Below are positions 3,080 to 48,620 of a DNA stretch of 64,000 nucleotides, piece by piece. The notes under the pieces are model-generated. The model had not been told where the DNA came from. It saw nothing but the letters and a program-made list of their open reading frames with translations, and ran no database searches. Source of the DNA: Armatimonadota bacterium (lineage in GTDB: Bacteria > Armatimonadota > Zipacnadia > Zipacnadales > JABUFB01); the NCBI GenBank assembly GCA_013314775.1, contig JABUFB010000003.1, positions 106,622 through 170,621 on the forward strand, given 5' to 3'. Both the position numbers and the translations under genes were made by a program. Position 1 is the stretch's first letter, and the number at the start of each line of letters is the position of its first letter.

Positions 3080-3108
3080 AGCTTAGGCCAACACGAAGGC
3101 GGCGTCAA
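3080..3108 (-). promoter_or_regulatory. sigma70-like promoter (TTGACG-17-TAAGCT) inside conserved element copy C, directed at the reductase gene
   Basis: Reverse strand reads ttgacg ccgccttcgtgttggcc taagct; -35 at 3103-3108, -10 at 3080-3085. The -10 is weak. Confidence 0.35.
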
Positions 3109-3304
3109 CCACGAGGAAGTTGGGGGGGCGTTCACCGAAAGCAAGTCGGTTCAGTCGAGCCGGGCCTGATGTCCTTCCTCGGGTGCACCGGTCAACGAAA
3201 AGAGACGCCGTCGTTACCTCAAAGCGCGCGAAGCAGGCCGCACAACCGCCCGGCTTCCTCATCCTTTCTGTCGCGGCCTTCGCGAGGTGTGAGGCAAAAG
3301 GCCC
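3080..3304 (-). repeat. conserved promoter-proximal element, copy C
   Basis: Reverse strand carries gggccttttgcctcacacctcgcgaaggccgcgacagaaaggATGAGGAAGCCGGGCGGTTGTG..., matching the cores of copies A (9995-10310) and B (48262-48562). Confidence 0.6.
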
Positions 3305-3654
3305 GTTAGCGAGTCTCCAGCACGTTCGGGCCGGCGATAGATGAGGCGCGGATGCCTGCCAAAGCGAAAGACCCCAGGTTGGAGGTGTCACAAATCGGTG
3401 GGTCGGTTCTGGGCTCAGGGCCCTGAAAGGGAGGATGCACGATGTGAATAAACTTGTTACAGATTTTTCAATGGAGAGGGAACCTTCCCACAGGATTCCA
3501 CGTCTATATTGATAGTACGAGAGGCGGGGCTCACCCCGATAAGGGGCTACACGCCACAACAAAGGAAGGCCACTCCCTCCCTCCTTCCCGAGCCGATGAC
3601 GCTGAGCCCCGCCTGTCCTAATGACCCTGACGCCAGAGCAAGAGGAAGGGGACT

Positions 3655-3972
3655 GTGATGATCAGGCTTCTACTGCTCTTTGCAATCTTGGCGATCTTTT
3701 CAGCCGCCGTGCCGGCATTTGCTCAGGCCGGAACCATGCGCAGTTATGTGGTCATCCCGATGAACCACATCAGTCCCGCGCTTATTGCCCAGATCATGGG
3801 TGGCGAGGTTATCTACGACCTCGGTCCTGGCGGCGGTGGCGGCAACATGGGCGGCTACGGTGGAATTGGCCCCGGCATGTACGGCGGATACGGCTATGGT
3901 GCAGGTTATGGGGGTTACCGTCCGGGGCAAGATGCAGGTTTCGGAACGCCGCCTGGCAGACGCAACTGGTAA
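3655..3972 (+). CDS. small secreted Gly/Tyr-rich protein
   Basis: ORF track 3655..3972. Signal peptide MMIRLLLLFAILAIFSAAVPAFA; C-terminal GGYGGIGPGMYGGYGYGAGYGGY tract; RBS-like GGAAGGGG upstream; AT-richer region 3430-3560 upstream. Confidence 0.5.
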   Translation: MMIRLLLLFAILAIFSAAVPAFAQAGTMRSYVVIPMNHISPALIAQIMGGEVIYDLGPGGGGGNMGGYGGIGPGMYGGYGYGAGYGGYRPGQDAGFGTPPGRRNW

Positions 3973-4039
3973 AACCTTCTCATGGCTACCCTCCCTCCCT
4001 AAGTCGCAGCCATGTGACACAGCAGCACAGCTGGGCGAG

Positions 4040-4080
4040 CCCGCCCGGTCCCTGCCCAAGGACCGGGCGGGTCCGCTTCT
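4040..4080 (+). terminator. putative intrinsic terminator after the small secreted protein gene
   Basis: 12-bp perfect stem cccgcccggtcc / ggaccgggcggg with 8-nt loop, followed by tccgcttct. Confidence 0.45.
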
Positions 4081-4154
4081 GCATGCAGGTAGATTGGGCT
4101 GTCTGGAGGAAAAGGATCAGGTCGTTCCAACAGCCGGGCAGGAGGCGCACCGAC

Positions 4155-5195
4155 ATGGCCATGACTGTGGGCGTCTGGGGCGTTGACCACCCCCATGGGG
4201 GCGGACACCTGAAGGCCCTCGAAAGCACCCCCGCCGTGGAGCGCCTGCTGTTCTTCGATGCCGACGACGCCAAAGCCCGGGCAGCCTGCGCGAACAGCGC
4301 GAAGGGTTTCATGGTGGACTCGCCTGACGCGCTGCTTGAACCCGGCGCGGTGGATGCGCTGGTGGTGCTCCTGACCGACCGCGAGGCCGGGCCGGCCACC
4401 TTGCGGGCGGTGGAGGCGGGCGTCTATGTCTATGGGGACAAGCCCGGAGCGCGCACTGCGGCGGAAATGGCCCGGATCGTCGAAGCCTGCAACCGCACTG
4501 GCGCCGCCTACTGCCCCTGCTACCCCTACCGCGTAGACCCAGTGGTGGTCGAGATCGGGCGGCTGATCGACGGGGGCGTGCTGGGCGATATCTGGTCTTT
4601 CGGCGCGCTGTGGCTCACGTCGCAAGTTGCATTGCGCGGGCCATCGTCCTGGCTTTTCCATCGGGAAACCGCAGCCGCGGGCATCCTGTCGTGGCTTGGT
4701 TGCCACTGGATCGACCTGATCTTCCACCTGCTTGGCCCTGGGCGCTCCGTCATGGCGCGCATCGCGACCCTCTCCGGCGAAAAGATCGATGTGGAAGACA
4801 CGGCGGTTGTAACCCTCGAGCTGCAGTCTGGGGCAATCGGCTGCCTGCGTGCGGGGTACGCGCACAAGCCTTTCCTGGGCTACGACGACAGTGACCTGTC
4901 AGTGAGTTTTGAGGGCAGTCTCGGGTCGCTCTACTGGCCGGTGAAGGGCGAGAACGGCTACCGGCTGCGCACCGGGCACCCGGACTACGACGGCCTTGCG
5001 CGGCGTTGGGTGCGGTTCGAGCGCACCAGCGACCCGCAGAGCCCCGGGTATTCTTACGCCTTCCTCAACGCGTTCCTCGAAGCCGCGTGCAAGCGCACCG
5101 CGCCGCCTGCTACCGCCCTGGATGCCCTGCGGGTACTGCAGGTGGTGGAGGCAGCCCGGCGGTCGTCGGACGAGGGCGTGCGGGTGGAACTCTGA
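4155..5195 (+). CDS. Gfo/Idh/MocA-family NAD(P)-dependent oxidoreductase
   Basis: Same frame as ORF 3621..5195 but start moved to ATG 4155 (RBS AGGAGG at 4138-4143); the upstream 178 codons are Arg/Trp-rich junk. MAMTVGVWGVDHPHGG... and GVYVYGDKPGA (EKP-type motif). Confidence 0.8.
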   Translation: MAMTVGVWGVDHPHGGGHLKALESTPAVERLLFFDADDAKARAACANSAKGFMVDSPDALLEPGAVDALVVLLTDREAGPATLRAVEAGVYVYGDKPGARTAAEMARIVEACNRTGAAYCPCYPYRVDPVVVEIGRLIDGGVLGDIWSFGALWLTSQVALRGPSSWLFHRETAAAGILSWLGCHWIDLIFHLLGPGRSVMARIATLSGEKIDVEDTAVVTLELQSGAIGCLRAGYAHKPFLGYDDSDLSVSFEGSLGSLYWPVKGENGYRLRTGHPDYDGLARRWVRFERTSDPQSPGYSYAFLNAFLEAACKRTAPPATALDALRVLQVVEAARRSSDEGVRVEL

Positions 5196-6864: not shown

Positions 6865-7043
6865 CTAGGGAGACGGGCAGAGCTGTTGAGGGCGCAGCCC
6901 TGCTGATAGTGGGGCTGCGCCTGTCGCTTTCTGGGAGGAGTGACGGCGGCCTAACCCCCCTCGGTCTCCATCTCCTTCGCGGCGACGGCAGCCGGTCCCG
7001 GGCGTGACACCCGCGTACGCCTTTGCGTCCACAGGACGCGTGG

Positions 7044-7290
7044 CCGAAGGCCCCCAGCCCCGTGCTTCAGCGCGGGGCCAAAGGGCCAGCGCGACACCCG
7101 CGCTGTTTTCTCGTCCGAAGGCCCCCAGCCCCGTGCTTCAGCGCGGGGCCAAAGGGCCAGCGCGACACCCGCGCTGTTTTCTCGTCCGAAGGCCCCCAGC
7201 CCCGTGTTCAGCGCGGGGCCAAGGGGCCAGCGCGACACCCGCGCTCATTTCTCGTCCGAAGGCCCCCAGCCCCGTGCTTCAGCGCGGGAC
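7044..7290. repeat. tandem array of ~3.5 copies of a 71-bp hairpin-forming unit
   Basis: Unit ccgaaggcccccagccccgtgcttcagcgcggggccaaagggccagcgcgacacccgcgctgttttctcgt starts at 7044, 7115, 7186, 7256. Contains hairpin ccccgtgc-ttca-gcgcgggg. Confidence 0.85.
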
Positions 7291-7389: not shown

Positions 7390-9966
7390 GTGTCCCGGTT
7401 CTTCATTCTCCGCACCTCGTGGCCGCTAGTTATCTTTCTCCTCGCGACGGTCGAGCCGTCGGATGCCGCCGTGTCGTGCCTCATCACCACTCAACGGCCT
7501 GCACGCACCTTCTACGTGGGCGAACGACCGGTGCTCAATGTCCATGCGGATTGCGAATCCAGGGAAGTGCCGTACGAGGTGCGCGACTATGACGGCAGTG
7601 TTGTGGCGCGCGGCACCATGAGTCTCTCAGCGGACCGGCCGGAAGTGCTCGAACTGCGGCCCATGCAATGCGGGCTGTACTCGCTCGCGCTCCAATTCGG
7701 CGATGAGACGGTGACCGATGCCTTCTGCGTGATCCCGCGGCCCGGTCTCGCGAAAGGCGATCCGGGTCTTTGGGGTTTCCAGAACTCGCCCATGGAGGAG
7801 GAGCGGTACAGGCTCATCGCCCAGATGGGCGGCCGCTACCTGCGCTTCGACATCAGCTGGCCCGACTATGAGCGCAAGAAGGGTGTGTTTGTACGCACCC
7901 GCCCTGACTGGTTCGCCGCAGCGGGCCGCAAGTTCGGCCTGCAGATGATCCCGACCCTGGGCTACACCACAAGCTGGGCTTGCCTTCCCCCGGACGACAT
8001 GAGCCCGGTGCGCACCCACACCTTCGCCCCGAAAGAACTGGATCATTGGCGCATTTACGTGGAGGCGATGCGTGACATCCTCGCGCCTCAGACGGTGAAC
8101 TGGCCCTCGCCGGAGGTGGATCAGGGGGGCGTTGAGACCCTTCCCCTGGTGCGTAGTTGGGAGATCTGGAACGAGGCCGACCAGAATTACTACTATGGGC
8201 CGTGGGCGCGTTATGTGGACCTGTTGCGCATTGCTGCCTGCGCGCTGAAGCAGAAGAATCACCACGAGAAGGTTATCTACGGCGGTTCCTGCGCGCACTG
8301 GACGGAGATGGGCCGGACATACGCCATGAACGGGCAGTATTACTTCGACCAGATCGCGTGGCATTCGAACTTCGACATACAGACCCAGACCCTCGGCTAT
8401 TACTATGGCGTGCCACAGCTTGGGTACCGGCACTGGCTGCCGTGCCGGACGGTCCAGACGGAGTGTTACCCGTCGATACCCACCGGAGTGCCTCCCGGCG
8501 AGTACGTGTTGCGTCTGTATGCGACCCTGAAAGCCTGGCGCGAGGAGGGCTACTGCTACTCGCTGATCGGGCTGCCGCTTATCGGCAAGGAAGCGCCAAC
8601 TATCCCGGCTTTCACCTATCGCAACGCGACCGGGCAAATTGTCCCGAAGGCGATGTATGTGGGCTACGCGGCGACGGTGAACTTGCTGTCCGAAGCCGCC
8701 TACATCGGACCGTTGGAACTGGGCGAGGGCGTCACCGCTTACCTGTTCGCGAGCCGGGGCCGGCCTTTCGTCGTCATGTGGTCGCCCGATGGCACGCGCA
8801 CGGCCACGGTGGATCTGGAGCCCGGTGCGGTGCGCCTGGACGGACTAGGCAGGAGTTTCAAAGCCCGTGGACGCAGTGTGACCCTCAATGTGACGGGGAA
8901 ACCGGTGGTGTTCATGGGGGTCTCGGATGAATACGTCGCCCAGGCGATCCGCGCCCGCTTCGAGCTTTACCTGACCACCGAATACGGGTATGTCTACAAC
9001 GTGGATTCGCCCTACGTGCGCGCCCTTGCCACAGACATCAAGGTGGGCACGGAGGATCAGGCGGCGCGGATGCGGGCCACGCTGGCCGCGGCGCTGGAGC
9101 GGATGGGCACCAACTTCAGGCGGGACACCGCGGCCCTGGAGCCGGTGGCGCTGGACATCCGCGCATCCATGGTGAATCTCGCGAACGCGGCGGTCATGCG
9201 GGGCTCCCCCCAGGCCAATCACTGCACCGGGCTGTACCGCCTGCAACTCATGTCCGAATGGTTTGCCGATGTCATGGATGCCCTGTGCGCTCCCGTGGAA
9301 AACGCGACACGGGTGGCCGATCCGGACCCATGGGACTCTCTTGAGCAGGCGCGGGCACAGCTGGTCAGTGACCAGTTGGGCACGATGAAAGGACTGTCCG
9401 AGGCCATCGTCGACCGCGGTTTCCGCATGGCGGAGGCTTTCCGGAGACACGGCGGGCATGGGGCCTGGCTGGCGGCCATGACGGCCCGCGAAGCTGCGCT
9501 GACCTTTGCCCCGGTCGACCCGGCGAAGGTTGTGGACGTGTTCGTGATCGCCTACTTCCCCCAGGCGCGCATGATGACCAAGGCCACACTTCTACCCGCA
9601 GGAACGACGCATACCGTGGAGTTTGAGGTACATAATTTCACGCCTCAAGCCGTGTCGGGCACGGTGCGCCTGACGGTGCCGGACACGTGGACCACGAAGG
9701 AGATCACCGCCGACTTCTCTGTGGAAGCCAACAGTCTGACACCACGCATCCCGGTACAGTTCGAGATCCCCGGGTCGGATGACCCCTGGCAACTCAAGTG
9801 GGCGTACCGTCCGGGACACCCATACTGCGTCTCGATACCTCCGCAGCTTGGGACCACGGTGATCGTGACCGCCGGGGGCACGCTGTCGGACGGGCGGGAG
9901 CTGTTGCCGACACTCCAGGAGGTGAATGTTGGTACGTGGGTTCGCGACGGGACGCCGCCGTCGTGA
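7390..9966 (+). CDS. secreted glycoside hydrolase, TIM-barrel clan GH-A-like, with C-terminal beta-sandwich region
   Basis: In frame with ORF 7204..9966; start set at GTG 7390 after RBS AAGGTGGAGG, giving a signal-peptide-like N-terminus. WEIWNEAD is an NE(P)-type acid/base motif. The ORF's first 62 codons lie in the tandem repeat. Confidence 0.6.
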   Translation: MSRFFILRTSWPLVIFLLATVEPSDAAVSCLITTQRPARTFYVGERPVLNVHADCESREVPYEVRDYDGSVVARGTMSLSADRPEVLELRPMQCGLYSLALQFGDETVTDAFCVIPRPGLAKGDPGLWGFQNSPMEEERYRLIAQMGGRYLRFDISWPDYERKKGVFVRTRPDWFAAAGRKFGLQMIPTLGYTTSWACLPPDDMSPVRTHTFAPKELDHWRIYVEAMRDILAPQTVNWPSPEVDQGGVETLPLVRSWEIWNEADQNYYYGPWARYVDLLRIAACALKQKNHHEKVIYGGSCAHWTEMGRTYAMNGQYYFDQIAWHSNFDIQTQTLGYYYGVPQLGYRHWLPCRTVQTECYPSIPTGVPPGEYVLRLYATLKAWREEGYCYSLIGLPLIGKEAPTIPAFTYRNATGQIVPKAMYVGYAATVNLLSEAAYIGPLELGEGVTAYLFASRGRPFVVMWSPDGTRTATVDLEPGAVRLDGLGRSFKARGRSVTLNVTGKPVVFMGVSDEYVAQAIRARFELYLTTEYGYVYNVDSPYVRALATDIKVGTEDQAARMRATLAAALERMGTNFRRDTAALEPVALDIRASMVNLANAAVMRGSPQANHCTGLYRLQLMSEWFADVMDALCAPVENATRVADPDPWDSLEQARAQLVSDQLGTMKGLSEAIVDRGFRMAEAFRRHGGHGAWLAAMTAREAALTFAPVDPAKVVDVFVIAYFPQARMMTKATLLPAGTTHTVEFEVHNFTPQAVSGTVRLTVPDTWTTKEITADFSVEANSLTPRIPVQFEIPGSDDPWQLKWAYRPGHPYCVSIPPQLGTTVIVTAGGTLSDGRELLPTLQEVNVGTWVRDGTPPS

Positions 9967-9994: not shown

Positions 9995-10310
9995 CTGGTC
10001 TCACAGCCCGCGAAGGGGCTGGAACCGTAGTCAGCGGCCGAATCGCGTCTCCTGAGCTGCCGAAGAGGGCAACAGTGATGATGAGAACACCGGGCGGTTG
10101 TGCTGCCCTTCCAGGGGCTCCCGGGTGATTATCAAGCGCCGGCGTCCGAGGGCTTCCCGCCCCCGGCTACAGGGTGTGGGCGACGACCGAGGGCAAAGGG
10201 CACGCTGATCGCGCATTCGGCCTCAGCCGGCACGTATCTCACAGGAGCGAGGGTCCTGGGGCTTCGCGCCGTCCGCTTGACCTTTGCGGACGGCGCTTCG
10301 TATAATGCCA
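9995..10310 (+). repeat. conserved promoter-proximal element, copy A
   Basis: Shares tctcacagcccgcgaag and gATGATGAGAACaCCGGGCGGTTGTG cores, plus caaagggc and agccggcacg blocks, with copies B and C. Confidence 0.6.
10277..10306 (+). promoter_or_regulatory. sigma70-like promoter TTGACC-18-TATAAT, with a palindrome across the -35 box
   Basis: -35 at 10277-10282, -10 at 10301-10306; inverted repeat ccgtccgc / gcggacgg flanks the -35. Confidence 0.5.
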
Positions 10311-16609: not shown

Positions 16610-16617
16610 CGTCCAAG

Positions 16618-16710
16618 CGTCGCTAGGGGAGCCCACCCGGGCTGAGATAGCGGAGACCCCGCTGACCCTGGGAACCTGATCCGGTTAGTACCGGCGTAGG
16701 GAAGCGACAG
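16618..16710 (+). promoter_or_regulatory. TPP (THI-box) riboswitch
   Basis: Conserved THI-element blocks in order: GGGGAGCCC...GCTGAGA...ACCC...TGACCCTGGGAACCTGATCCGGTTAGTACCGGCGTAGGGAAG; followed by a GC-rich hairpin (ggcggccc / gggccgcc) and RBS AAAGGAG before thi4. Confidence 0.85.
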
Positions 16711-16803
16711 ACGAGCGCCTGATATGGGTCGCCGGCTGCATGCTTCCTCAAGATGCCGGCGGCCCTTTATTTTGGGGCCGCCGCACCGAAAGGAGCGGTC
16801 TCG

Positions 16804-29730: not shown

Positions 29731-30356
29731 GCTGGCGTCCCGCGCTGGCGCCCCGGGTTGACGCCCCGGGTTGAAACCCGGGGCTAGGGGCCTTCGGCCG
29801 GGCGTCCTGCGGACGGGCTTTCCTGTCCCGCGCTGGCGCCCCGCGCTGAAGCACGGGGCTGTGGGCCTTCGGCCGTGCGTCCTACGGACGGGCTTTCCCG
29901 TCCCGCGCTGACGCCCCGCGCTGAAGCACGGGGCTGTGGGCCTTCGGCCGGGCGTCCTGAGGGACGCGAAGATTGACGCCCCGGGTTGACGCCCCGGGTT
30001 GAAACCCGGGGCTAGGGGCCTTCGGCCGGGCGTCCTGAGGGACGCGAAGGCTGAGCGTCCCGCTCGACAGGCCGTTCGCCGTTGCCGTCCAGCCCCGAAG
30101 GGGCGTCAGTCTCTTGCCACCAGCGTAAGCTGGTGGAATCAGGCCCCCATCGAGATTATAAGAGCCCCCGAAGGGGGCGGCAGAAACCCGAGCTCCGCCT
30201 GCGGGGGCGTCGATGCCCCGCGCTGACGCCCCGCGCTGAAGCACGGGGCTGTGGGCCTTCGGCCGTGCGTCCTGCGGACGGGCTTTCCTGTCCCACGCTG
30301 GCGCCCCGCGCTGAAGCACGGGGCTGTGGGCCTTCGGCCGGGCGTGCTGCGGACGG
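29731..30356. repeat. GC-rich multi-hairpin repeat array, locus 2
   Basis: Shuffled modules: gccccgcgctgaagcacggggc, ggccttcggcc (UUCG loop), ccccgggttgaaacccgggg, ccaccagcgtaagctggtgg (GNRA loop), gagcccccgaagggggc. Lies between convergent gene ends. Confidence 0.8.
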
Positions 30357-30437
30357 TATGGCGGACACGAGTGCCAGATCAGGCCCACAGACATACGATC
30401 ACGGCCATTGTGCGTCTGGCTGAGCCGGTCACCCCCC

Positions 30438-35494: not shown

Positions 35495-37354
35495 ATGATC
35501 ACGCCACCAATGGCCGGGCTGTGCATAGTGCTGGCCCTGACTACTATTGCGGCCGTGGCCGATCCAGCCGCGGAGGACACCGCCGTGCGCCGATTCCACG
35601 CGCGTGACTACGGAGCCTTGCCGGGTGCTTATGCCGATGCGGGACCAGGGATCGGCGCCGCTATCGCGGCTGCGATTGACTGCGGGCAGCCCGCCGAAGT
35701 CGTGCTCGAAGCGGGCACATATCGCCTGGGGAGGCCCCCTGCCGGCGACCATGCCGTCAGGATTGCGAACGCCCGGGACCTCACCATCCGGGGCAGCGAT
35801 CCGGGCACTGAACTCATCATCACGGACCCGGAGACTGGCGGCTTCAGCCTGTCCGGCTGCCTGCGCACGACAGTGCGAAACCTCACCCTCGACTATGACC
35901 CGCCGCCTTTCGCCCAGGGGACGATCACGGCGGTTGACCTGGACGCGCAGACCTACGACCTGCAGGTGGACGAAGGTTTCATCGAGCCTGACCACGCGGC
36001 TTTCCAGAATGCGAAGGCGGTCTGGGGGCTGGTGGTGCGGCCCTTGGAGGGCACCGGCGATACGCGCTTCGGGCCCACGGCGATCCCGGCGGTCATCGAC
36101 AGCAAGATCGGGCCGCGGCACTGGCGCATGAAGATCGGCGGCCCTCCCACCGGATACCCTGAACCCCTGCGCAATTCGGGCATGAAGCCCGGAGACCGCT
36201 TCGTCCACGCCGCGCGGAACTACACGGCAGCTTTCGGGGCCAGCCATTGCGATGACCTGATCTTCGAGAACCTGACACTCCACAGTTCGCCCGGACTGGC
36301 ATTCCTGCCATACCTTTGCGGCAAGGTGACCATCCGCAATTGCCACGTCCTGCGTCGCGAGGGCTCCGGGAGGATGCTGTCCACCAATGCTGACGGGGTC
36401 CACTGCCGGGGTTGCCGGAAGGGCATCACCATTGACGGCTGCAGCTTCGAGGGCATGGCCGACGACGGCATCAACATCCACAGTTCCGCGATCCCGGTGC
36501 TGGAGGTCATTTCGCCCGCGGAACTGGTGCTGCAGCGGTCTCATTACACGCTGCTCGTGGGGGACCTTCTGGAGGGCATGGACGTGGATACCGCCAGCGT
36601 GCTGGGGCAGGCAAGGGTGCTTTCGGTTGCGGAGTTACCCGACCGCTGGGCTTACCGTGTTGCTCTCGACGCCCCGATTGATGGCCTGCGCGCGGGAGCG
36701 AGTGTGGAGGATGCCGATTGCCTGTACAATCTGTCTGAAAGCGGCACAGGTTCGGTCATCACCGACTGCCATTTCCGCTGCTTCCGGGGGAGAGGGATAC
36801 TGCTCAGCGCCACCGGGGTGAGGGTCTCCGGGAACCTGTTCGAGGTGATGGAGGGCTGGGGCATCTCGCTCAACCACGAGAGCACCCGCTGGGCCGAAGG
36901 CCCCCTGGCGCGGGATATTGAGATCATCGGGAACACCTTCAACGGCAAAGGTGGCTACATGCCCGCGATCTTCCTGTACTCGCAGCAGCGCGACGGGAAG
37001 CTCTCCAGCGCCCGCGCGATCCACAACCTGCTCATCCAGGGCAATCTTTTCCGGGACCTGGGCACTCCGGCCATTGAGCTGCGAGCCTGCCGTGGAGTGC
37101 GGATCATCGACAACCGCATCGAGACTGGCGAGGACACGCGGCGGCCCCGGGCGAAATATGATTCCATTCTCGTGGACAATTGCGCAGAGGTGGCGATACG
37201 GGGGCTGAAGGTGCGTGACCTCGACCCGCGCCATCTTTCGGCGATCGCGATAACCGCAGCCACGGACCCGGGCGATGCGGGCGTGGTGATAGAGGGCCTG
37301 GACACCGAGATCGCGCTGTCATCGACCCCGGTTAGGGACCAGCGCGGCGAGTGA
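35495..37354 (+). CDS. secreted right-handed parallel beta-helix protein (pectin-lyase fold; hydrolase or lyase)
   Basis: In frame with ORF 35405..37354; start set at ATG 35495 before the hydrophobic segment. Periodic beta-helix rungs (ITIDGCSFEG, VITDCHFRCF, LIQGNLFRDL, RIIDNRIETG). Confidence 0.65.
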   Translation: MITPPMAGLCIVLALTTIAAVADPAAEDTAVRRFHARDYGALPGAYADAGPGIGAAIAAAIDCGQPAEVVLEAGTYRLGRPPAGDHAVRIANARDLTIRGSDPGTELIITDPETGGFSLSGCLRTTVRNLTLDYDPPPFAQGTITAVDLDAQTYDLQVDEGFIEPDHAAFQNAKAVWGLVVRPLEGTGDTRFGPTAIPAVIDSKIGPRHWRMKIGGPPTGYPEPLRNSGMKPGDRFVHAARNYTAAFGASHCDDLIFENLTLHSSPGLAFLPYLCGKVTIRNCHVLRREGSGRMLSTNADGVHCRGCRKGITIDGCSFEGMADDGINIHSSAIPVLEVISPAELVLQRSHYTLLVGDLLEGMDVDTASVLGQARVLSVAELPDRWAYRVALDAPIDGLRAGASVEDADCLYNLSESGTGSVITDCHFRCFRGRGILLSATGVRVSGNLFEVMEGWGISLNHESTRWAEGPLARDIEIIGNTFNGKGGYMPAIFLYSQQRDGKLSSARAIHNLLIQGNLFRDLGTPAIELRACRGVRIIDNRIETGEDTRRPRAKYDSILVDNCAEVAIRGLKVRDLDPRHLSAIAITAATDPGDAGVVIEGLDTEIALSSTPVRDQRGE

Positions 37355-39334: not shown

Positions 39335-40082
39335 GGCGGGCTCGCGTAAGCCGACCGTCCCGGTCGGCGGGTGTCATTGGAGTCGAGCGGGACGCTCGAC
39401 CTTCGCGTCCCTAAGGACGCCTGGCCGAAGGCCCCTAGCCCCGTGCTTCAGCGCGGGGCATCAATTCGGGGCACCGACTCAACCCGGGGCATCAACCCGG
39501 GGCGTCTGCCGCCCCCTTCGGGGGCTCTTATGATCTCGAAGGAGGGGCCTGATTCCACCAGCTTACGCTGGTGGCAAGAGGCTGACGCCCCTGCGGGGCT
39601 GGACGGCGAACGGCGAACGGCCTGTCGAGCGGGACGCTCGACCTTCGCGTCCCTCAGGACGCCTGGCCGCAGGCCCCTAGCCCCGGGTTTCAGCGCGGGG
39701 CGTCGATCCGGGGCATCGACGTCGCGTCCGGCAGGACGCCCGGCCGAAGGCCCCTAGCCCCGTGCTTCAGCGCGGGGCGTCGATCCGGGGCGCCTGCCGC
39801 CTCCTTCGGGGGCTCTTATGATCTCGAAGGAGGGGCCTGATTCCACCAGCTCACGCTGGTGGCAAAGGGCTTCCGCCCCTTCGGGGCTGGACGGCGAACG
39901 GCGAACGGCCTGTCGAGCGGGACGCTCCGCCTTCGCGTCCCTCAGGACGCCTGGCCGCAGGCCCCTAGCCCCGGGTTTCAACCCGGGGCGTCAACCCGGG
40001 GCATCGACGTCGCGTCCGGCAGGACGCCCGGCCGCAGGCCCCTAGCCCCGGGTTTCAGCCCGGGGGCATCCCGGTCGGCGGC
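39335..40082. repeat. GC-rich multi-hairpin repeat array, locus 3 (inverted relative to locus 2)
   Basis: Same modules as locus 2 in reverse-complement orientation, e.g. ctgccgcccccttcgggggctcttatgatctcgaaggaggggcctgattccaccagcttacgctggtggcaagag; a ~230-bp block is internally duplicated. Confidence 0.8.
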
Positions 40083-40086
40083 TGCG

Positions 40087-47127: not shown

Positions 47128-48107
47128 AACTCGAACTGGAACGGATGCTGGCCGAGGCCGGCGTGGAACTGCTATACCATACATACTGTGTGGACAGCAT
47201 CGTGCAGGACGGACGGCTGAGGGGGGTAATCACCGAAAGCAAGGCCGGGCGAGAGGCTGTCCTGGCGAAAGTGACCGTGGACTGCACGGGAGATGGGGAC
47301 ATCGCGGCGCGGGCCGGTTGCGAGTATGAGATGGGCAGGGATGCCGATGGCGTCGTGCAGCCGATGACCCTCATGTTCGAAGTCCGTGGTATCGGGAGCT
47401 TTGACTGCGACTCGGCTCTCGAATTGTTCGACCTCATGTCGGATGCGCTGGAGCGCGCCGGTCTGCCGCACCGCCTGCCTTTCGAGCGGGTAAACTACGC
47501 CCCGTGGCTCATCACTCTGCCGGCTGCGGGTGAGGCGGCGATCCAGGCCACGCATGTGTACCGACTGAACCCGCTGGACCCGGCGGACCTGACAAAGGGC
47601 ACGGTGGATGCCCGGCGGCAGGCTCACGAGATGGTGGAGGTCCTGCGTCATGTGCCGGGGCTCGAGGGCGTGCGGCTGGCGGCTACCGCACCGCAGATGG
47701 GGATCCGTGAAACCCGGCGCGTGACAGGCCTGTACAGGCTGACGCTGGCTGACCTGACGGCCCCGCGGGCGTTCGAGGACGGGATCGCGTCCTGCGGTTT
47801 CGGTGTAGATATCCACGATCCGGACCCGGATTCGGGCGTTGACAGCGGACACGGGGTGAAGACGGGGGTGTACGACATCCCCTACCGCTGCCTGGTTCCC
47901 GCGGGTGTGGGCGGCCTCCTGGTCGCCGGACGGTGCATCTCGGGGAGCCACGAGGCCCACGCATCGTACCGAGTGACCGGGACGTGCATGGCGATGGGGC
48001 AGGCGGCGGGCCTCGCGGCGGCGTGGTGTGTCAGGGACGGGATGGAGCCGGCGGAAGTGGACGGAGGAGAACTGCGAAGGGTGATTGCGTCTCGCAAGGG
48101 AGAGTAG
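46782..48107 (+). CDS. FAD-dependent oxidoreductase
   Basis: In frame with ORF 46662..48107; start set at ATG 46782. Dinucleotide motif VLVCGAGPAGVSAAIAAAREGA; TVDCTGDGDIAARAG. Confidence 0.75.
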   Translation: MGYQLTPHPMAIGVDDLCVLESPRNTPVRLQADVLVCGAGPAGVSAAIAAAREGARTVLLERYGMAGGMWTAGLVNPFFEATRNGWLVRELIQRLEAAGAWKRWKFAHTFCPETMKLELERMLAEAGVELLYHTYCVDSIVQDGRLRGVITESKAGREAVLAKVTVDCTGDGDIAARAGCEYEMGRDADGVVQPMTLMFEVRGIGSFDCDSALELFDLMSDALERAGLPHRLPFERVNYAPWLITLPAAGEAAIQATHVYRLNPLDPADLTKGTVDARRQAHEMVEVLRHVPGLEGVRLAATAPQMGIRETRRVTGLYRLTLADLTAPRAFEDGIASCGFGVDIHDPDPDSGVDSGHGVKTGVYDIPYRCLVPAGVGGLLVAGRCISGSHEAHASYRVTGTCMAMGQAAGLAAAWCVRDGMEPAEVDGGELRRVIASRKGE

Positions 48108-48261
48108 GCTGACAGCGGAAAGACTGAGAGCATCTTGGCTTACAGGCATCAGCGCGTTATCTTAGCAGCGGCCAGAGCGTGCCTGGACCTATCGAAGTCA
48201 GACGCTCTCTCTGTCCGGAATGAGTTCCGCCGGCCCTGGAGAGTTGGCATCTCGTTGGTGG

Positions 48262-48562
48262 GCCCTTTGCCTCACAGCCCGCGAAGCGGGCGACAGCTCA
48301 TAGCCGCGGGTGGAGTGGAGCGAAGCGGAACGGAGCCCGTGGAATCGGGGCACTTCAGGTCGCTTGAGCCCCCGGGGGGGGCGACAGAAATGATGAGAAC
48401 GCCGGGCGGTTGTGACGCCGGCTTCGCGGGCTGTTGTGGAAAGGCTCAAGGCAAAGGGCTGGCTGAACGCGGATTTGGGATTAGCCGGCACGCATCCAGG
48501 AGGACCGATGCTCTTTCGACGGCCTGTGAGTCTTGACACGCCCTGCACCTTGGCAATATACT
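48262..48562 (+). repeat. conserved promoter-proximal element, copy B
   Basis: cctcacagcccgcgaagcgggcgacag ... aATGATGAGAACgCCGGGCGGTTGTG ... caaagggc ... agccggcacg, as in copies A and C. Confidence 0.6.
48533..48562 (+). promoter_or_regulatory. sigma70-like promoter TTGACA-18-TATACT upstream of yceD
   Basis: -35 at 48533-48538, -10 at 48557-48562, ~60 nt before yceD. Confidence 0.5.
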
Positions 48563-48620
48563 CGCCTTCTGCAAATAGGCTCACAGGCCACCTATCGCGG
48601 CGAAAGCCGCGTTCTGCATT

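Follow-up and report, generated by a model that had tools for sequence, protein, structure and literature searches.

A probable modular dispersed repeat in three intergenic regions of an Armatimonadota genome

ERIC sequences (also called IRU) occur in the Enterobacteria as imperfect palindromes of about 100 nt or more. They are intergenic, have a conserved centre and come in size variants that differ by internal insertions and deletions at fixed places; they encode no protein and have no known transposase. BOX elements of Streptococcus pneumoniae lie near genes; their end modules are able to pair, and the module between them is present in variable number (boxA-boxB(n)-boxC). The Correia/NEMIS elements of Neisseria are MITEs; they are small, non-coding and dispersed, have long and short subfamilies, vary in presence and often lie upstream of genes. 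Their inverted repeats are at the very ends, they have a TA target duplication, and they carry promoter hexamers of their own. REP, BIME and REPIN sequences are GC-rich extragenic palindromes. REP units are 20-40 nt long, occur in arrays and are accompanied by a RAYT transposase; BIMEs are mosaics of motifs and REPINs are hairpin doublets. To our knowledge, no repeat family has been described from Armatimonadota; there is no such description among the papers listed by a literature search.

The window analysed here is a 64-kb stretch of a contig from an Armatimonadota bacterium. It contains three copies of a sequence, E, in three intergenic regions (Table 1). E is probably a lineage-specific, non-coding, modular dispersed intergenic repeat of the same general kind as MITE, ERIC and BOX sequences. 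The material available for E is the three copies in the window and one partial orthologue in relatives, whose loci are referred to below by L numbers.

Table 1. Location and composition of repeat E, the neighbouring promoters and repeat R. Positions are those of the window unless a relative's locus is named.
Feature	Position	Strand	Composition or remark
A module			GGGCCYTTTGCC
B module			CTCACAGCCCGCGAAG
Core, 34 nt (full)			GCGACAGAAATGATGAGAACGCCGGGCGGTTGTG
A' module			GGCAAAGGGC
Copy 1	9998-10247	+	lacks 5' A; B, B-like duplication, core, degenerate copies of B', A', D
Copy 1, B block	10000-10015	+	exact match to ctcacagcccgcgaag
Copy 1, core	10069-10102	+	GCAACAGTGATGATGAGAACACCGGGCGGTTGTG
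Copy 1, 23-nt core	10080-10102	+	match to GATGAGRAMRCCGGGCGGTTGTG
Copy 1, A' and D	10192-10247	+	A' 10192-10201; D 10202-10247, ending 29 nt before the -35
Copy 2 (most complete)	48258-48502	+	A-B-(B-like duplications)-core-B'-A'-D
Copy 2, 5' arm	48260-48286	+	A = GGGCCCTTTGCC (48260-48271); B = CTCACAGCCCGCGAAG (48271-48286), exact match to ctcacagcccgcgaag
Copy 2, core	48381-48414	+	GCGACAGAAATGATGAGAACGCCGGGCGGTTGTG
Copy 2, 23-nt core	48392-48414	+	match to GATGAGRAMRCCGGGCGGTTGTG
Copy 2, 3' arm	48420-48459	+	B' = GGCTTCGCGGGCTGT, 15-nt insertion, A' = GGCAAAGGGC
Copy 2, module D	48460-48502	+	shared with copy 1 only; 3' end CAGGAG, 30 nt ahead of the -35
Copy 3 (compact)	3208-3306	-	no internal duplication, no D
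Copy 3, modules		-	A 3304-3293; B 3293-3278 (two mismatches to ctcacagcccgcgaag); core 3274-3241; B' 3234-3217; A' remnant 3218-3208
Copy 3, 23-nt core	3241-3263	-	match to GATGAGRAMRCCGGGCGGTTGTG
Promoter, PD40/TolB-like gene	10277-10306	+	TTGACC-18-TATAAT, 11/12; outside the repeat; kept in L018 and L019
Promoter, yceD-rpmF-plsX-fabH	48533-48562	+	TTGACA-18-TATACT, 11/12; outside the repeat; kept in L014, L016 and L017
Probable promoter, aldo-keto reductase/ferredoxin gene	3080-3108	-	TTGACG-17-TAAGCT; fails the scan criteria; outside the repeat
Repeat R (relatives)	L014:78-105; L015:4-31; L018:3-30		

The degenerate 23-nt core GATGAGRAMRCCGGGCGGTTGTG has three matches in the 64-kb window against 0.01 expected; no further match is present in the window when up to three mismatches are allowed. 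When each of the three intergenic regions is compared in full with the window by sensitive blastn, copies 1 and 2 align in two blocks (E-values 2e-10 and 6e-9), copies 2 and 3 with E-values of 1e-11 and 2e-8, and copies 1 and 3 with an E-value of 1e-5. Neither blastn nor an nhmmer profile of the core finds a fourth copy in the window, and the arms of E occur nowhere in it beyond the three copies. An earlier note on this DNA had proposed a paralogous family of three intergenic copies ahead of unrelated genes, and this family is real. The note had also listed several shared blocks. The core and the block ctcacagcccgcgaag (which is the B module) are indeed common to all three copies; 'caaagggc' and 'agccggcacg' are found in copies 1 and 2 only. 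The copies are present where the note placed them, but the extents it gave run over into the promoters, which are non-repeated DNA.

A family of only three copies could also reflect fortuitous resemblance within GC-rich DNA or a single local duplication, and several similarities picked out by eye proved to be non-significant. However, the match count and the E-values given above speak against chance, as does the distribution of the copies, which are 7 to 45 kb apart and on both strands. In addition, the same arm is found in other genomes, and the contigs of at least four samples break inside it at the reductase locus. Chance or a one-off duplication is effectively refuted as an explanation.

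Sequence reading and gapped local alignments show that E follows the plan A-B-(B-like duplications)-core-B'-A'-(D). An arm of ~25 nt (GGGCCYTTTGCC-TCACAGCCCGCGAAGCGGG) and its inverted copy flank the 34-nt core; B' and A' are inverted copies of B and A. Thirteen bases of the core are invariant, which is only marginally above expectation at ~75% pairwise identity; on a rough estimate, ~0.5 such runs would be expected by chance. The element occurs in a short form of ~95 nt, which has arms and core only (copy 3), and in a long form of ~250 nt, which has internal duplications of B and the extra 3' module D (copies 1 and 2). D extends ~45 nt past the 3' arm and is ~77% identical between copies 1 and 2; the blastn block that contains it is 64 nt long, with 75% identity and an E-value of 6e-9. 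The similarity between the two long copies stops at CAGGAG (10247 in copy 1 and 48502 in copy 2).

MAFFT distributes the single B of copy 3 over both B modules of the long copies, whose apparent insert is thus an internal duplication. Since copies 1 and 2 share both the derived B-like duplications and D, an element which had already been modified was itself copied again. A 9-bp direct repeat, GGGCGACAG, flanks the insert of copy 2 and could be taken for a target duplication left by a nested insertion; internal duplication of the B module accounts for it better. A putative 5' module 'U' common to copies 2 and 3 was dropped (57% identity over 35 nt by hand count; best BLAST E-value 0.03).

E is non-coding: across the core, the frames of the copies match for only ~9 codons before they differ. 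A small protein across the core was considered in both directions (forward M(M)R[TK]PGGC[AD]A, reverse QPPG[VF]LI[IL][ST]VA) and was rejected; there is no consistent start, and after some 9-16 codons the frames have either stopped or diverged.

The folding potential of E varies between copies. Copy 2 is predicted to fold into a near-perfect long hairpin (MFE -116.5 kcal/mol; z = -6.0 against shuffled sequence), while copies 1 and 3 fold no more stably than shuffled sequence (z ~ +1). Between the left flank and the reverse-complemented right flank, 40 of 55 positions agree in copy 2, 24 of 34 in copy 3 and 26 of 40 in copy 1. The arms of copies 1 and 3 have decayed, and pairs are lost where the copies differ in B and B'; no compensatory changes which keep B/B' pairs are seen among the three sequences, a comparison of low power.

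The stable hairpin of copy 2 raises the possibility that E acts as RNA, either as a 3'-UTR hairpin (a terminator, insulator or stabiliser, as for transcribed REP and ERIC sequences) or as a family of small RNAs. Copies 1 and 2 do follow co-oriented genes, and all copies lie just before the next promoter, which would be a useful site for an insulator. Against this, copy 3 is located between divergent genes and has no upstream transcript, and no promoter or U-tract terminator is predicted inside E on either strand. The shuffled-like folds of copies 1 and 3 and the uncompensated pair-breaking differences in the arms also argue against a conserved RNA. A whole-window Rfam scan gives no match at gathering score at the three E sites, which bears out the statement in the earlier note that no element family could be recognised; at a permissive threshold (E < 10) there is still no match for copy 2 and nothing relevant in the loci of relatives. 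On these grounds an RNA function is unlikely. The note had offered a small RNA or a leader as possible readings; the former is left unsupported by the missing internal promoter and terminator, the Rfam result and the arm differences, and the latter is ruled out by the position of E upstream of the promoter. A reading of 'UGAUGAG' as part of a hammerhead or other ribozyme was rejected on inspection by eye, as no stem II is possible. The only Rfam match at gathering score in the window is a TPP riboswitch at 16615-16719 on the forward strand, which covers the full-length model (76.8 bits, E = 2e-13).

All three copies of E are intergenic and point toward the downstream gene. Copy 1 is located between a 920-aa ORF without a Pfam match (stop codon at 9966) and the PD40/TolB-like gene, and begins 32 nt past the stop codon. 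Copy 2 begins ~150 nt past the stop codon of a gene for an FAD-dependent oxidoreductase (stop at 48107) and precedes yceD-rpmF-plsX-fabH. Copy 3 separates divergent genes, with a small ORF and a GFO/IDH/MocA oxidoreductase on one side and the aldo-keto reductase/4Fe-4S gene on the other. According to public gene calls on the identical contig, the 524-aa ORF at 3621-5195 probably represents two genes, a 104-aa ORF (3658-3972) and the 346-aa GFO/IDH/MocA oxidoreductase (4155-5195). The sequence upstream of it, at 3505-3617, is conserved in L024.

A sigma70-like -35/-10 pair had been reported after each copy. Two of these are strong, matching the consensus at 11 of 12 positions each; the third fails the scan criteria, yet it is kept in relatives. 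At the reductase locus the -35 is retained in both L020 and L024, and the -10 is TAAGCT in L020 and TATGGT in L024. The promoters are conserved at orthologous loci and are alike among themselves only in the hexamers; they are thus host sequence rather than cargo of the repeat, and belong to the neighbouring genes. This disposes of the suggestion in the note that E is a promoter-carrying repeat, as the promoters lie outside E and are kept at orthologous loci which do not contain it.

The association of E with promoters is mostly explained by genome compactness. When E is subtracted, copies 1 and 2 each leave a gap of only ~60 nt between the stop codon and the -35; whatever inserts into so short a gap is inevitably 'promoter-proximal'. 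The distance from the core to the -35 is variable (~119, 133 and 175 nt).

The 5' untranslated region of yceD (48563-48620) is 92-93% identical in all relatives, including L017, and includes a hairpin that does not vary, CGCGGC-GAAA-GCCGCG. Rfam has no match to this region, and no covariation is seen among four sequences. The region is a candidate for a conserved leader of yceD-rpmF-plsX.

Homologues of YceD assign the window to Armatimonadota; one of them, on a 328-kb NCBI MAG contig labelled Armatimonadetes, is 99% identical. Orthologous loci from relatives were compared at all three E sites. Identity to the window at four-fold sites ranges from 0.81-0.86 in L014 through 0.65-0.73 in L016, 0.69 in L018, 0.685 in L020 and 0.56 in L017 to 0.46 in L019. 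The 100 nt from the -35 onward are 86-93% identical in close relatives. At yceD, this segment is still 92% identical in L017, against 56% at four-fold sites. The sequence upstream of the -35 is not conserved.

At the reductase locus, the 3' arm of E is present in at least four samples (L020-L023), and there are two further similar places. The contigs all begin at one and the same base with CCCGCTTCGCGGGCTGTGAGGCAACGGCAG, which corresponds to B'-A'. With assembly at k=31, such a common start inside the arm is expected if the sequence is a perfect palindrome or a repeat with many copies. The segment TTGCCTCACAGCCCGCGAAGCGGG of the 5' arm of copy 2 is the reverse complement of the L020 arm at 24 of 24 nt, although L020 has a four-fold identity of only 0.685; in contrast, the arm of copy 3 in the window has drifted. 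The E family may still be young, or homogenised, in sister lineages. The spacer between the E arm and the -35 at this locus is 55-68% identical, which is close to the neutral rate. In L021, the contig end at 2859-2881 is the Illumina adapter AGATCGGAAGAGCACACGTCTGA fused to genomic sequence, an assembly artefact.

At yceD, nothing upstream of the -35 aligns between the window and L014 (z = -1.5), despite four-fold identity of 81-86%. E therefore appears to have been gained, lost or replaced at this locus between the window lineage and that of L014. Abrupt loss of homology at the -35 was considered as an exotic sign and was rejected as a general feature: upstream sequence at the reductase locus aligns at about the neutral rate, and only at yceD does a true replacement seem to have occurred. 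There is no trace of the core or D in the intergenic regions of L017, L019 and L024, though the promoters are kept; at this distance, neutral sequence would be unrecognisable anyway. Resemblances of module D to intergenic regions of L014, L017 and L019 had been seen by eye; they gave z < 1 in shuffle tests and were dropped.

These comparisons bear on the idea that E, or D within it, is a cis-regulatory platform for protein binding. Such a platform would be placed at a set distance from strong promoters, perhaps delivered by a mobile element, and would co-regulate the genes that follow E (PD40, yceD-rpmF-plsX and the reductase gene). Each copy does precede a promoter, in the same direction, the core has 13 invariant bases, and the ends of D in copies 1 and 2 are at nearly the same distance from the -35; in relatives, moreover, the same two promoters are preceded by a different repeat with a dyad (see R, below). 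However, the core contains neither a dyad nor a direct repeat, its distance to the -35 varies, and copy 3 does not contain D. Core and D are missing in L017, L019 and L024 before the very promoters that are conserved, and E appears to have been replaced at yceD in a relative that retains 81-86% neutral identity. The three genes are functionally unrelated, and the fixed distance is a post hoc observation from two loci. The shared regulator-binding region proposed in the earlier note is thus unsupported, since the core has no dyad or direct repeat and is absent before orthologous promoters in relatives with 77-80% identity. A regulatory module is an improbable explanation of E; the reading as a dispersed repeat remains preferable.

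In three loci of relatives, the slot just upstream of the promoter is filled by another repeat, R, with the sequence CTGTAACCCATGTATGTTACT[A/C]GCTCA[A/G]. R is relatively AT-rich and has the dyad TGTAAC-N8-GTTACT. It precedes yceD in L014 and L015 and the PD40 gene in L018, and the contigs of all three end inside it; it is absent from the window. The 3' terminal ...CA and the sharp boundary of R would fit the end of a DDE-type IS. R ends 19 nt before the -35 in L014 and 18 nt before it in L018; for D, the corresponding distance is 29 nt in copy 1 and 30 nt in copy 2. The spacing of D hints at non-random placement, which is not predicted by simple neutral insertion. Together with the uniform orientation of E toward the downstream gene, it counts against a mobile repeat. 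The short ancestral intergenic gaps and the high density of repeats make the spacing of D and R less surprising.

One way to read the spacing is that E and the unrelated R are interchangeable mobile 'upstream modules' which, at the same host promoters, are positioned with a fixed spacing to the -35. We regard this as very unlikely. If it were true, a family of mobile elements would target or supply the DNA upstream of promoters and so rewire housekeeping operons such as yceD-rpmF-plsX lineage by lineage. The spacing of D and R is the one feature that could lift E above an ordinary repeat; were it to hold genome-wide, mobile DNA could be said, speculatively, to shape promoter-upstream regions.

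The preferred reading is that of a dispersed repeat. E is small (95-250 nt), lacks a conserved reading frame and is dispersed as three copies on both strands over 45 kb, as is a MITE. Like ERIC and BOX, it is an intergenic imperfect palindrome with long and short forms that arise through internal duplication. Under this reading, transposition or some similar copying mechanism would have carried the copies into short gaps between genes, where they would then have decayed at a roughly neutral rate. Any effect on expression, for example a block to read-through by a strong hairpin, would be a by-product.

E is not classed here as a MITE in the strict sense. Homology between copies 1 and 2 runs ~45 nt beyond the 3' arm, and the inverted arms are therefore non-terminal in these copies; as D lies outside the arms, E is not a textbook MITE. 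The arms may be terminal in copy 3 and in L020. Inspection of the three copies, whose boundaries are uncertain by a few nt, reveals no shared or duplicated flank that could be a target-site duplication. No clean empty site is seen among the relatives; their yceD contigs carry R and extend only 32-123 nt beyond the -35 on its upstream side. The 64-kb window contains no transposase or autonomous partner with E arms.

In a scan of 185,579 GTDB species genomes, nine matches are found to the exact core when four of its positions are left free. Two of these were examined: one is a chance match in coding sequence of a member of the Bryobacteraceae, and the other is in an intergenic repeat-like region of Granulicella. 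The latter match, GATGAGGCACCCGGGCGGTTGTG in Granulicella sp. dw_53 (L007:2573-2595), has only the 19 specified bases in common with E and is probably due to chance. The remaining seven are in unrelated phyla. In JGI metagenomes the core has three matches, all inside coding sequence and attributed to chance. Viral contigs contain no match to the E arm or to R, and no match to E is found in plasmids or phages. Since repeats break assemblies, collections based on metagenome-assembled genomes (MAGs) under-represent E. E is a real repeat family of a known general kind, uncatalogued and restricted to one lineage; most likely it is an ordinary repeat that is or once was mobile, rather than a novel regulatory system. 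With E, a repeat family is on record from Armatimonadota.

The window also contains other repeats. GC-rich REP/BIME-like arrays (GGCCGAAGGCCCC[C/T]AGCCCCGTGCTTCAGCGCGGGGC) are located at 7001-7290, 29740-30430 and 39380-40085, and the sequence also occurs at 36887-36912. The units are spaced 70-77 nt apart, and their orientation is opposite between arrays. Short-read contigs of the same organism end in the first of these arrays (at 7269, the start of L010, and at 7071, an end of L026). A tandem duplication at 813-1124 has a period of ~150 nt, with copies that are 92-98% identical (families D6, D12 and D17); it is apparently inside an ORF downstream of the reductase gene, and contig L026 ends within it at ~1086. 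E, R and the REP-like arrays break short-read assemblies at the same bases in many samples, and the contiguity of MAGs is limited as a result.

Among the described systems, E shares with ERIC an intergenic, non-coding imperfect palindrome, a conserved central region and size variants, and neither is accompanied by a known transposase. It differs from ERIC in phylum and in the extra non-palindromic 3' module D, which is present in two of the three copies; the resemblance is one of kind and not of descent. The likeness to BOX is one of build: in both, end modules pair, an internal module is present in variable number (A/B-(B-like)n-core-B'/A' in E) and the element lies near genes. E differs in its unique 34-nt core. 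With the Correia elements, E has in common its small size, lack of coding capacity, dispersal, inverted repeats, apparently variable presence, long and short forms and a location upstream of genes. In contrast to the Correia elements, two of the three copies have their arms in an internal position, the flanks show no target duplication, and the adjacent promoters are those of the host. E resembles REP, BIME and REPIN sequences as a GC-rich extragenic palindrome; unlike the short arrayed REP units, it is a longer single unit built around a non-palindromic core.
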